Assembly (NCBI GenBank): GCA_001510075.1
Contig: LFEN01000034.1
Location: 354-64,353, forward strand
Origin: Alphaproteobacteria bacterium casp-alpha2
Lineage (GTDB): Bacteria; Pseudomonadota; Alphaproteobacteria; Rhodospirillales; Casp-alpha2
Length of the DNA: 64,000 nucleotides
Direction: 5' to 3'
Part shown: positions 34,993 to 44,926 of the stretch, piece after piece
Position numbering within the stretch: position 1 is the first letter of the stretch
Layout: every line of letters starts with the position of its first letter
Notes under the pieces: model-generated
Database searches by the model: none
Seen by the model: the letters and a program-made list of their open reading frames with translations, nothing else
What the model was told of the DNA's origin: nothing
Made by a program: the position numbers and the translations under genes

Positions 34993-35021
34993 CCTTACTT
35001 CACTCTCCAAATTTCAGACGG

Positions 35022-35050
35022 AAAAAAAGGGCCGCTCAATTGAACGGCCC
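35022..35050 (-). terminator. Rho-independent terminator read on the minus strand (GGGCCGTTCAATTGAGCGGCCC + U7)
   Basis: GGGCCG/CGGCCC stem at 35029-35050. A7 at 35022-28 on the plus strand equals a U-run after the stem on the minus strand. There is no T-run on the plus-strand side. Confidence 0.6.
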
Positions 35051-35103
35051 TAGTGCAGTCTCGCGTGGGGGAGAGTTCCGCGAATGACTGTTTTCGCCGC
35101 CCG

Positions 35104-41888: not shown

Positions 41889-41956
41889 ACGCTGTGCTGC
41901 AGAGAACTTTATGCTTTTGATGGCCGCTCGGGTTATCTGGGTCAGCCCCATAGATT

Positions 41957-42970
41957 TTATCGAACCGACGCCTGGATGGCGCCGGCGGCGATAGAGGTCG
42001 CGCCGAGCGTTTGACGGCCATGGCTTGAAACCCCGGTGCGCCAGTCGCGGAGTTGCTGGGCGCGCTTGGTGGCGAACCGGGTCTTGGGGTCGCCTTTGGT
42101 CATGCGGTCAATTTCCCGCTTTTTTTTCAGCTCCATTTCCGCTTGCCGCATGGCGACCAGGTGCTGGGTGCCGAGGCCCCGGGATTTGGCGTCGCGCCAT
42201 TTTTCAAGCTGTTGGCTCCTGAATTGGGCCAGGGCTTCGGCGCCCCGGAGGGTCGGGTCTTCGGCCTCGCGGCCGGCGTCAAGCCTGGCCCTGAAACGTT
42301 TGTTCAGGCGTCCCATTCGGGCATGGTCAACAGGGATATATATGTTGGCGACCTGGGCAACGCTACGCCCCCCCTGGCCGCGCCAGAAGGCGGCGACTTT
42401 TTCCTTATAGGGGCCGTTCCGTTCCGGCGTCGTTGAATGGTAGTAGCCGGCAGCGTCCGTCCAATTGCCGGCCACCTTGAACATGTTTTTAAGGTAGGCG
42501 GCGGCGTAGGTAGTGTTGGCCTTGGGGTCAAAAGCTTCCTTTAAATTTTCGAAAGCGTGGCCGTGGTAATAGAGGTTGACCTGCATACAGCCGACGTCAA
42601 TGTTTCGCACCCCTTGGGTCATCAGGATTTCGACTTCGGCAACGGCTTCGGCCTTGGTATCGAAAAAACGGCCTTCACCGCCGGAAGTCACGGTCCAGGG
42701 CCAGGCAACATTTTCCCGCCGCCCGGCATCCCAGCGCCCCGATTCGGCCAGCGAAATGGCTTTCAACAGGTGTTTGGGCACGCCCATCCGCTGTTCCGTG
42801 CGTGCCGTTTCCGTGGCGCATAAATTCCAAGCATTATCAAAGGCTTGTGTAGGATTAGCCGATGCCGGCGAGGACTCCGCCAGCAGCCAAAAGACGATGA
42901 AAAACCCCAATATTCGGAAAAACGCTTTCACACTATTTACTCCCAAACCCTTTATTCCCGTGTTTACCAA
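41957..42970 (-). CDS. Lytic transglycosylase (SLT domain) with a charged C-terminal extension
   Basis: Contains LLKAISLAESGRW (catalytic Glu-Ser), WPWTV and IDVGCMQVN, plus an N-terminal signal/anchor. Confidence 0.8.
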   Translation of the reverse strand: MVNTGIKGLGVNSVKAFFRILGFFIVFWLLAESSPASANPTQAFDNAWNLCATETARTEQRMGVPKHLLKAISLAESGRWDAGRRENVAWPWTVTSGGEGRFFDTKAEAVAEVEILMTQGVRNIDVGCMQVNLYYHGHAFENLKEAFDPKANTTYAAAYLKNMFKVAGNWTDAAGYYHSTTPERNGPYKEKVAAFWRGQGGRSVAQVANIYIPVDHARMGRLNKRFRARLDAGREAEDPTLRGAEALAQFRSQQLEKWRDAKSRGLGTQHLVAMRQAEMELKKKREIDRMTKGDPKTRFATKRAQQLRDWRTGVSSHGRQTLGATSIAAGAIQASVR

Positions 42971-43110
42971 CGCAATGTCTGTGCCAAGCAGGAGTGCTAA
43001 GCCGGGGAGGAAAAATTAAACAGGATAAAAATACGGTTATTTGTAAAAAAACTAATTAAATCAAAACAATATGGTTCGTGAAAAACATATTCAAAAAAGT
43101 AAGATTATAA

Positions 43111-43139
43111 TTGACGTAAGTATCATCGGTGTGTATATT
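43111..43139 (+). promoter_or_regulatory. Near-consensus sigma70-type promoter TTGACG-17 nt-TATATT
   Basis: Read directly: TTGACG at 43111-43116 and TATATT at 43134-43139, with a spacer of exactly 17 nt, in a 289-nt AT-rich gap. Confidence 0.6.
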
Positions 43140-43145
43140 CACCCT

Positions 43146-43247
43146 CGCAACAACGGAAAGCCCGGCAACGACTGGGGCACTTTTCGAGTTGCGTTTCTTG
43201 GATGTTTCCTCCCAAACACTCGGGCCGCCCTTTGAGCGGCCCTTTTT
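43146..43247 (+). ncRNA. Candidate trans-acting sRNA (about 100 nt) with an exposed CCUCCC motif
   Basis: It begins about 7 nt after the -10 element. 5' stem CGCAAC (43146-51) / GTTGCG (43188-93). A single-stranded stretch contains UUCCUCCCAAA (43206-16). Terminator GGGCCGC-N7-GCGGCCC + U5 at 43222-43247. No ORF and no downstream plus-strand gene. Confidence 0.55.
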
Positions 43248-43259
43248 CTTGTCTGGGGT

Positions 43260-43787
43260 TCAGGGCAAACTTTCGTCACCGTCGCCCAGGGGGCGCTGCA
43301 TGATGACCTGATCAAGCCAGCGTCCTAATTTGAAGCCGACCGACGGCAGGGTGCCGATTTTCTCGAAACCCAGCTTGGCATGCAGGCTGATGGAGGCATC
43401 GTTGGCGGAATCGCCGATGATGGCGATCATCTGGCGGAACCCTTTGTCCGTGCAGCACTCGATCAGGTCTTGCAGCAACAGCCTGCCGATGCCCTGGCGG
43501 TGGGTGCCGACATCGACATAGACCGAATTCTCGACCGTGTGAAGATACGCCGGGCGGGGCCGGTAAGGGCCAGCATAGGCATATCCCTTAACGGTGTTCC
43601 CGACCACCGCGACCCGGTAGGGATAGCCATGGCGTAGAACATCGTCGCGCCGGCGCGTTACCTCTGCCACATCGGGGGGCGTTAGCTCCCAACTGGCCAG
43701 CCCTTCGAGTACATGGTGCGCGTAAATTTCCCGGATTGCCGTCATATCCGCATCTTCAACGTCGCGGATCAGAATATCGCCGTTCAT
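43260..43787 (-). CDS. GNAT-family N-acetyltransferase, phosphinothricin/methionine-sulfoximine acetyltransferase-like
   Basis: IRDVEDADMTAIREIYAHHV...SWELTPP...YVDVGTHRQGIGRLLL...LHAKLGF follows the PAT-type pattern. Confidence 0.8.
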   Translation of the reverse strand: MNGDILIRDVEDADMTAIREIYAHHVLEGLASWELTPPDVAEVTRRRDDVLRHGYPYRVAVVGNTVKGYAYAGPYRPRPAYLHTVENSVYVDVGTHRQGIGRLLLQDLIECCTDKGFRQMIAIIGDSANDASISLHAKLGFEKIGTLPSVGFKLGRWLDQVIMQRPLGDGDESLP

Positions 43788-43797
43788 GGGCCTGTCT

Positions 43798-44808
43798 TCA
43801 TCTCACGCCAAGGGTTTCGGGGTCTATGGCGGCCAGGGTTTCGATCAGGCGGCCGATTTTTTGTTGCAAGCCGGGAAGCCCTTTGCCCCGTTCGATGCGT
43901 TGTTCGTCCATGTAAAGCCCCCGGTTGACCTCGACCTGGAGGACATGAAACCCGTTCCGGGGGCGTCCGTAATGGCGGGTTGTAAAACCCCCGGCATAAG
44001 GCTTGTTCCGGGTCACGGTGAGGCCGGACCCTTCCAGCGCCTGTTGGGCAATGGCGGTTATATCGGGCGCGCAGGCGGTGGCGAAACAATCGCCGAGCAC
44101 GATATCGGACGGGGCGCGTCCGCTTTTCGATCCGTTCATGCCGGCGCTGGACGGCATGGAATGACAATCCACCAGCAAACATCCGCCGAAACGCTCTTTG
44201 GTTTCTTCCATCAAGCCCTTTAGCGCCGCGTGGTAGGGGTTATAGAAGCCCTCGATGCGTTGCTCGGCATCTTCGAAGCTGAGCGGTTCGCGGTAGATAT
44301 CCTCGCCGTCGGTGACGATTCTGGCGATGGTGCCCAGGCCTGCGGCAATGCGGGGCGAAGAGGTGTTGACGTAATCGGGCAAGGGGCCTGCGAACATCGC
44401 CGGGTCCAACTCGAAGGCCTCGCGGTTGGCATCGATATAAGCCCTCGGAAACCGGGCGCACAGCAACGGCGCGCCGTGTTCGGGGGCGCCGGCGAAAACT
44501 TCATCGACGAAGGCGTCCTCGGAGCGGCGCAACTGGGTTTTACTCAAGCGTGACGCAGCGACAAATTCCGCCGGATAATCGCGCCCCGAATGGGGCGACG
44601 CAAACACCACAGGCGCTGTCTGGCGAGCCGGAGACACGAGCCGCCACGACGCAGACGGGTGCCCGGAAACCATGGCATCCGGTTCGTCCAGGTCCGCTTT
44701 CGCGTGCAGTTCCAGAACGGTGTCGTCGGGCGCGGTCAAGGCGGTCTCTCCCAAGAGTGCGTAAAGGGGAACCCTAAATGTATACCCGCCCATCGCCCGC
44801 CTTGCCAA
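43798..44808 (-). CDS. N-formylglutamate amidohydrolase family protein
   Basis: Contains PVVFASPHSGRDYP and LLVDCHSMPS, which are FGase motifs. The start is uncertain. Confidence 0.75.
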   Translation of the reverse strand: MARRAMGGYTFRVPLYALLGETALTAPDDTVLELHAKADLDEPDAMVSGHPSASWRLVSPARQTAPVVFASPHSGRDYPAEFVAASRLSKTQLRRSEDAFVDEVFAGAPEHGAPLLCARFPRAYIDANREAFELDPAMFAGPLPDYVNTSSPRIAAGLGTIARIVTDGEDIYREPLSFEDAEQRIEGFYNPYHAALKGLMEETKERFGGCLLVDCHSMPSSAGMNGSKSGRAPSDIVLGDCFATACAPDITAIAQQALEGSGLTVTRNKPYAGGFTTRHYGRPRNGFHVLQVEVNRGLYMDEQRIERGKGLPGLQQKIGRLIETLAAIDPETLGVR

Positions 44809-44851: not shown

Positions 44852-44926
44852 GGGCGCGTAGCTCAGCGGGAGAGCACCTCGTTGACATCGAGGGGGTCAC
44901 TGGTTCAATCCCAGTCGTGCCCACCA
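44852..44926 (+). tRNA. tRNA-Val (anticodon GAC), CCA encoded
   Basis: Manual cloverleaf: acceptor GGGCGCG/CGTGCCC, D arm GCTC-AGCGGGA-GAGC, anticodon arm CCTCG-TTGACAT-CGAGG, T arm ACTGG-TTCAATC-CCAGT, then ACCA. Confidence 0.95.

Follow-up and report, generated by a model that had tools for sequence, protein, structure and literature searches.

A predicted long-form alphaR8 (MmgR/SuhB/SisA) small RNA gene in an intergenic region of Alphaproteobacteria bacterium casp-alpha2

An intergenic region of Alphaproteobacteria bacterium casp-alpha2 carries a promoter-like sequence and a terminator-like hairpin on the strand opposite to the two flanking genes, and the question raised by this locus is whether they delimit a gene and, if so, of what kind. 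The region lies in a 64,000-nucleotide stretch of contig LFEN01000034.1 (assembly GCA_001510075.1, positions 354 to 64,353), which is the window analyzed here and whose numbering is used throughout. It is AT-rich, with a GC content of 0.35-0.36 vs about 0.6 in the flanks, and separates two minus-strand open reading frames (ORFs), 41957-42970 (SLT domain) and 43260-43787 (GNAT). A preliminary description, made from the letters alone, had proposed a regulatory small RNA (sRNA) with a single-stranded CCUCCC anti-Shine-Dalgarno motif, and this proposal was supported by a match to the Rfam family RF00519 and by the hallmarks of the alphaR8 sRNAs. The best explanation of the locus as a whole, with a probability of about 0.9, was that positions 43146-43250 (+) constitute an alphaR8 sRNA gene of a long form, with the mechanism of the characterized members. 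The locus is of an already known kind: though unannotated, it is a standard representative of a family that has been curated and studied by experiment, RF00519 being detected at the default Rfam thresholds.

The whole-window Rfam scan at gathering thresholds returned two matches, one tRNA and RF00519 (suhB, Makes More Granules Regulator RNA, mmgR). The latter was located at 43184-43257 (+), spanned model positions 1-77 of 77 and scored 43.9 bits (local E = 7e-8), the gathering score of this family being 41 bits. The match supplied the family name that the preliminary description could not give. When 42900-43400 was scanned permissively, no family other than RF00519 appeared at E <= 1 except Trp_leader, and membership of the other sRNA and leader families of Rfam (alphaR14, alphaR15 and others) was not found in that interval. 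The Trp_leader candidate, with 24.4 bits against a gathering score of 41, was rejected as spurious and driven by the terminator. The transcript predicted at 43146-43250 (+) from the RF00519 match and from a covariance model of its own clade (R1, see below) was accordingly assigned to alphaR8/MmgR/SuhB.

RF00519 is the alphaR8 family, represented by MmgR in Sinorhizobium, SuhB in Sphingopyxis and SisA-D in Caulobacter, and its traits were compiled from four articles (PMC12559287, PMC7143759, PMC8401924, and PMC12542648). The family is distributed over all Alphaproteobacteria but the Rickettsiales, in most species as a single copy adjoining a putative N-formylglutamate amidohydrolase (FGase) gene, and its hallmarks are an internal 10-mer, 5'-UUUCCUCCCU-3', that is single-stranded and follows a weak hairpin, and a Rho-independent terminator (PMC12559287). 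The host of the window is an alphaproteobacterium outside the Rickettsiales, and its nearest FGase loci belong to metagenome-assembled genomes (MAGs) of Rhodospirillales, Thalassospiraceae and Kiloniellales.

The family 10-mer, here UUUCCUCCCA, was found at 43205-43214 (+) with 9/10 identity to the published UUUCCUCCCU (PMC12559287), and would be the anti-Shine-Dalgarno seed. It is preceded by a U-rich linker, UUUCUUGGAUG (43194-43204, +), which in the RF00519 alignment is the counterpart of the model hairpin P1. Downstream of the seed, the terminator scan called an intrinsic terminator at 43222-43250 (+), composed of GGGCCGC, the loop CCUUUGA, GCGGCCC and then UUUUUCUU; the canonical terminator first described at 43222-43247 was thus confirmed. 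Its 7-bp all-GC stem (43222-43242) stands 7 nt after the 10-mer and is followed by T5 at 43243-43247. When the sRNA region (43140-43250) was folded as RNA, a minimum free energy of -38.9 kcal/mol was obtained (z = -2.5 vs shuffles). The sequence UUUCCUCCCAAA at 43205-43216 was essentially open in this fold, and the CUCCC core had an unpaired probability of 0.75-0.93 by partition function, in agreement with the unpaired U/C-rich stretch containing CCUCCC that had been read from the letters.

Furthermore, the 5' stem CGCAAC/GTTGCG with an inner hairpin, also part of the preliminary description, was present, folded and covaried. It forms the base of a three-tier hairpin of 48 nt, SL1 (43146-43193, +), delimited by folding and covariation, in which CGCAAC (43146-51) pairs with GUUGCG (43188-93) and encloses two inner helices. 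SL1 alone folds at -20.9 kcal/mol, and its arms had unpaired probabilities of 0.02-0.03 by partition function. Most of it lies outside the 77-position Rfam model, in which only the 3' arm is included. In many relatives P1 has the form GCCC-UUCUU-GGGC; here the 3' arm of SL1 occupies the left side of P1, and the remainder belongs to the linker. As to the upstream-hairpin trait of the family, the much stronger, covarying SL1 stands in place of the weak P1, a different element in an equivalent architecture.

Single-sequence folds of 42 homologues gave in nearly all cases a hairpin of 27-50 nt ending 10-21 nt before the seed. The basal helices differed in a compensatory manner, being CGCAAC/GTTGCG in the window and in locus L006, GCAAC/GTTGC in L004 and ACACAGT/GCTGTGT in L014. 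A MAFFT alignment of the 42 full-length homologues (A1) allowed RNAalifold to recover nothing but the terminator, the apical part of SL1 being variable in length, and was replaced by a second alignment (A2) and the covariance model R1, both built from 28 non-redundant sequences of the window's clade. Changes on both sides were seen in A2 at 4/8 pairs of the basal helix, for example at pair 14-56 (AU in 14 sequences, GC in 9 and GU in 4). In a third alignment of 44 distinct genomes (A3), whose counts lean towards this structure because it was fitted to the model, both sides had changed at 8/8 pairs of the basal helix (80% of cells paired), at 9/9 of the terminator (98.5%) and at 17/17 of the whole structure, where 90.8% of cells were paired vs 32-52% when the partners were slid by 1-3 columns. 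None of 500 shuffles of A3 reached the observed covariation values.

The genomic position of the unit was compared across 80 loci fetched with the FGase protein from one-genome-per-species contigs, mostly MAGs of Rhodospirillales, Thalassospiraceae and Kiloniellales. R1 gave a single match in the window, at 43144-43250 (83 bits, E = 1.7e-18), which was among the top scores, and matched 44/80 of the FGase loci, all of them syntenic in position and in orientation (strand opposite to FGase). The word TTTCCTCCC likewise occurred exactly once in 44/80 FGase loci, always downstream of FGase on the opposite strand, although two of these matches (L001 and L028) sit within coding sequence, outside any sRNA. 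Of the first 20 loci, 6 had a suhB call by Rfam at the place of TTTCCTCCC. When metagenome contigs were scanned for exact occurrences of TTGGATGTTTCCTCCCAA, 68 further loci were obtained, about 50 of them with the full sRNA. A 16-nt block, TTGGATGTTTCCTCCC, was identical in dozens of homologues, TTGGATG was invariant across the window's sRNA clade, and the seed was invariant in all aligned homologues (42/42 and 28/28).

The synteny marker of the family is present as well. The FGase gene (43798-44808, -; Pfam PF05013, E = 2.5e-74) and the sRNA are convergent and separated by one GNAT gene, so that the linkage reported for alphaR8 (PMC12559287) was found in the window. Among the 44 syntenic loci, the GNAT gene stood between FGase and the sRNA in 32 and the sRNA came directly after FGase in 12, and an SLT-like homologue was located beyond the sRNA in 22.

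As the preliminary description had indicated, the plus strand carries a sigma-70-type promoter (43111-43139), with a -35 box TTGACG (43111-43116), a 17-nt spacer and a -10 box TATATT (43134-43139), matching the consensus at 10/12 positions. The arrangement TTGAC(G/C)-17-TA(T/C)(A/C)(T/C)T was also observed in L004, L005, L006 and L014. Promoter-like sites, defined as matches of at least 8/12, were present at the equivalent place in 26/62 non-redundant homologues, vs 2/62 at a control place. Promoter place, invariant seed and covarying terminator of the unit as first described were thus all conserved in relatives. In this clade the promoter precedes SL1 by 4-7 nt; here the -10 box ends at 43139 and SL1 begins at 43146, and the 5' end of the sRNA is therefore most likely at 43146 +/- 2. 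With a 3' end predicted within the U run (43243-43250), the length would be about 102-105 nt. The start near 43146 and the length of roughly 100 nt proposed earlier agree with the position at which the promoter is conserved and with the covariation of the 5' stem. Sequence comparison suggests that this alphaR8 copy is a long form, vs the 77 nt of MmgR, in which SL1 would protect and structure the 5' end of the RNA and leave the seed exposed.

Several observations weigh against this assignment. The RF00519 match exceeds the gathering score by 2.9 bits only, the hairpin P1 of Rfam is not formed in the window (2/4 pairs are non-canonical in a by-eye reading of the alignment), and the 10-mer ends in A instead of U, a terminal A that is common to the whole TTGGATG clade. 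Taken alone, the promoter match was at chance level, with 1 site vs 1.0 expected in shuffles, and both the transcription start and the RNA length are predictions from sequence. The dyad resembling a PhaR/AniA operator that overlaps the promoter in most homologues is degenerate in the window, where its right half CGCAAC alone is kept, and L014 keeps none of it. Within the 64-kb window, neither an RNAduplex scan nor 8-mer enrichment allowed a target to be assigned: the seed scan gave only GC-rich imperfect duplexes, the best non-self ones at about -23 kcal/mol and none of them notable at translation starts, and was judged uninformative. Finally, the best FGase relative, L001 ('Rhodospirillales bacterium BS1bin.8', 87% amino-acid identity), has a clean deletion of 42968-43257, which takes away the promoter together with the entire sRNA gene. 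In L003 (Thalassospiraceae), the SLT-like gene and GNAT are retained, but the intergenic region contains no sRNA. Some lineages can therefore do without the gene.

The deletion of the entire intergenic segment in the closest relative, the reduction of the PhaR-like operator to a half-site and the disrupted P1 with its marginal Rfam score would also be compatible with the relic of an alphaR8 gene, decaying or non-functional and no longer expressed or regulated. This explanation, the best surviving of the rivals, was nevertheless considered improbable. The promoter keeps 10/12 consensus positions and the terminator is perfect; SL1 is intact and compensatory with respect to L014 (CGCAAC/GTTGCG vs CACAG/CTGTG); the 16-nt block TTGGATGTTTCCTCCC is identical to that of dozens of homologues; and the R1 score of 83 bits is among the top matches.

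A second rival holds that there is no sRNA at all, that the hairpin terminates the convergent GNAT/FGase operon and that chance in AT-rich DNA accounts for the promoter-like hexamers. The hairpin does stand 18 nt beyond the GNAT stop codon and could work bidirectionally, and the promoter scan did not exceed the chance expectation (1 site vs 1.0). Nevertheless, the minus-strand sequence after the hairpin is GAGUGUUUGG, a poor U tract, and the scan called no terminator on that strand. The hairpin is conserved and covaries together with the seed, the linker and SL1; the unit is unchanged whether the convergent neighbor is GNAT or FGase; and the locus matches an Rfam family. Very little probability was therefore left to it.

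Just as hard to sustain was the idea of a gene for a small protein. The preliminary description had seen no ORF of meaningful length, which was borne out only in part, since two ORFs of the plus strand, of 54 amino acids (43071-43235) and 60 amino acids (43129-43311), exist mechanically and overlap the unit; in relatives, no frame is kept. Neither frame nor ORF length was conserved among 27 homologues, and the conservation is RNA-like, with an invariant 16-mer devoid of a wobble pattern, compensatory stems and loop indels of lengths not divisible by three. An open-frame test around the seed also showed no consistent frame, although the scarcity of stop codons in the GC-rich flanks leaves this test with little power to discriminate.

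A cis-acting leader or riboswitch-like element controlling a downstream gene, as which the 'suhB motif' is said to have been originally catalogued (as a candidate cis-regulatory element, by Corbino et al. in 2005), was the least credible reading, since a strong terminator closes the unit, the next 1.6 kb of the plus strand are antisense to GNAT and FGase and are followed by a tRNA-Val at 44852, and the family members act experimentally in trans. The observation that no plus-strand gene lies downstream had already been made, and it held, this tRNA being the next feature of that strand.

The alphaR8 assignment allows a mechanism to be proposed by homology. MmgR, SuhB and SisA are all Hfq-associated, and SuhB and SisA have been shown to repress by pairing of the motif with ribosome-binding regions; for MmgR, no direct target pairing has yet been identified. 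MmgR limits polyhydroxybutyrate (PHB) in an Hfq-dependent manner, and deletion of its core raises the levels of PHB and phasin (PMC8401924). With Hfq, SuhB represses a TonB-dependent receptor as well as thnR and phbB, the latter two at the Shine-Dalgarno sequence. SisA represses a large regulon with Hfq by means of its 10-mer, and is titrated by the sponge CrfA (PMC12559287). The regulon in the characterized relatives concerns the flow of carbon, including PHB storage, phasins, phbB, transporters and catabolic regulators. By homology, the RNA of the window should be an Hfq-associated repressor acting in trans. An RNA of about 102-105 nt would be bound by Hfq, probably via its 3' U-tail and the U-rich linker; the CCUCCC seed would pair with the Shine-Dalgarno regions of several mRNAs, and this pairing would block the initiation of translation and often destabilize the mRNA.

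Compared with the known members, the window RNA shares with MmgR of Sinorhizobium meliloti the Rfam family, the 10-mer seed region and the terminator, and both are independent units of the sigma-70 type. The two differ in the last base of the seed (A in the window, U in MmgR) and in size, MmgR having 77 nt, whereas the window RNA is predicted to have a 48-nt 5' stem-loop within its 102-105 nt. With SisA of Caulobacter crescentus it shares the placement downstream of FGase and the order of hairpin, anti-Shine-Dalgarno 10-mer and terminator, but in the window a GNAT gene separates FGase from the sRNA. The SisA system also has the sponge CrfA, whereas the 64-kb window contains one alphaR8 copy and no CrfA-like sponge was detected in it. 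SuhB of Sphingopyxis granuli TFA, an MmgR homologue, acts with Hfq by pairing with the Shine-Dalgarno sequences of thnR and phbB, and PHB increases when SuhB is deleted; in TFA it is under a LysR-type regulator, and its host order and neighboring genes differ from those of the window. Exposed CUCCC-type motifs are likewise used against ribosome-binding sites by AbcR/alphaR15, NfeR1/alphaR14 and CcsR. In these sRNAs the motifs are in hairpin loops, often several per RNA, whereas the window RNA has a single motif in a linker.

The main value of the result lies in annotation: the orphan unit of this Casp-alpha2 organism can be given the name of an alphaR8 (MmgR/SuhB/SisA) sRNA gene, whose product likely regulates the storage and use of carbon at the post-transcriptional level. 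An uncultured marine case of the Rhodospirillales type is thereby added to a family that controls PHB accumulation and the feast-to-famine switch. For those working on alphaR8 the locus offers modest leads, namely the long form with SL1, a -10/+1 operator that is lost here and a conserved divergent sigma-54 promoter.

The operator deserves a separate description. In S. meliloti, the core of the PhaR/AniA box is YGCRNYGCR and PhaR binds the box at the mmgR promoter in electrophoretic mobility shift assays (PMC12542648); through this box, AniA represses and NtrC activates mmgR (PMC8401924). The PhaR/AniA-NtrC dyad (TGC-N3-GCA type) is a trait of mmgR and not of the whole family, sisA-D having no common promoter motif. 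A dyad YGCNNNGCR, typically TGCAGTGCG/A, was found over -10/+1 in 35/42 homologues (for example L006, L029, L057 and L093), and in the homologues that carry it, the right half of the dyad provides the 5' arm of SL1. In S. meliloti the AniA/PhaR-NtrC dyad is located between -35 and -10, whereas in this lineage it lies over -10/+1 and is degenerate in the window, which does not contain the dyad as defined from the published motif (PMC12542648). Only the right operator half being kept here, PhaR-type repression of the window copy was therefore probably lost or replaced.

Additionally, the intergenic region carries on its minus strand a sigma-54-type -24/-12 element, TGGCACAGACATTGC (42972-42986), which was the sole match in the window, with 0.19 expected. 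The motif TGGCAY-N5-TTGC was present opposite the sRNA, 172-361 nt from the seed, in 54/88 sRNA loci. This element would drive the divergent SLT-like gene (41957-42931), which would share the intergenic region with the sRNA promoter. A sigma-54-type promoter at this place implies an mRNA start near 42960, downstream of the TTG at 42970, and the gene therefore probably starts at the GTG at 42931 (Shine-Dalgarno GGGAG). Hence, the gap between the two minus-strand genes, given at first as an AT-rich stretch of 289 nt, kept its composition and its setting, but its length is probably about 328 nt. In L001 (3560-3815, corresponding to window 41893-43257), a second deletion, 41893-42725, takes most of the SLT-like gene, and the flanks have 88-90% nucleotide identity.

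The SLT-like gene's Shine-Dalgarno region, GGGUUUGGGAGUAAA (42936-42950, -), is complementary to the seed at 13/15 positions, a value statistically indistinguishable from that of an ordinary strong Shine-Dalgarno sequence. The 8-mer complementary to the seed, TTTGGGAG, occurs in the window only at this site and antisense to the sRNA, and the match at the Shine-Dalgarno sequence is kept only in part in relatives. With 2 matches vs 2.6 expected, the 8-mer is not enriched, and the match at the SLT-like gene is therefore suggestive only. A joint proposal, in which the alphaR8 RNA of Rhodospirillales-like lineages is a distinct long form with an SL1 derived from the transcribed right half of a PhaR-type operator (the same sequence serving as DNA operator and RNA stem), and in which its seed could directly repress the SLT-like neighbor, the sRNA and this sigma-54-dependent gene being a conserved divergent pair, was regarded as doubtful. 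If true, the window copy would be a variant without the operator but with the stem.

Immediately 5' of the -35 box of the sRNA lies an AT-rich block, AACATATTCAAAAAAGTAAGATTATAA (43084-43110, +), conserved by eye in the window's sRNA clade, blocks of this type being seen in L004, L005, L006, L014, L081, L084, L088, L089, L092, L095, L098, L111, L113 and L145. Its function may be that of an UP element or of a site for a regulator. The block is partly palindromic in L004 and L005 and would stand at enhancer distance from the divergent sigma-54 promoter.

Two candidates for a sibling sRNA were rejected. A second TTTCCTCCC at 43005-43013 (-) has neither a terminator nor a match to the model, and its position is not conserved. 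An nhmmer match at 35019-35057 (-) has a strong look-alike intrinsic terminator (GGGCCGTTCAATTGAGCGGCCC followed by T7) and lacks the CCUCCC seed. On the plus strand, 43005-43013 reads GGGAGGAAA, the exact complement of the 9-mer of the seed. This site, about 190 nt before the seed and within the intergenic region they share, lies upstream of both promoters and is therefore in neither of the predicted transcripts. Its position is not conserved, although L014 has GGGAGGAA closer to its promoter, and the complementarity is probably due to chance.

Regarding the neighboring genes, the convergent GNAT acetyltransferase (43260-43787, -; Pfam) is similar to ArsN1 and phosphinothricin acetyltransferases. 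Its best NCBIfam likeness, to ArsN1-type arsinothricin/phosphinothricin N-acetyltransferases, scored 142.7 bits and did not reach the cut-off of 210. The FGase is similar to HutG, but with 107.5 bits it remained far under the equivalog cut-off of 278.75, and it is therefore probably not the HutG of histidine utilization. A tRNA-Val(GAC) gene (44852-44926, +) is divergent from the FGase gene and immediately upstream of it. A tRNA was found at the equivalent position in 17 of the first 20 related loci, and the conserved block therefore comprises tRNA - FGase - (GNAT) - sRNA - SLT-like gene.

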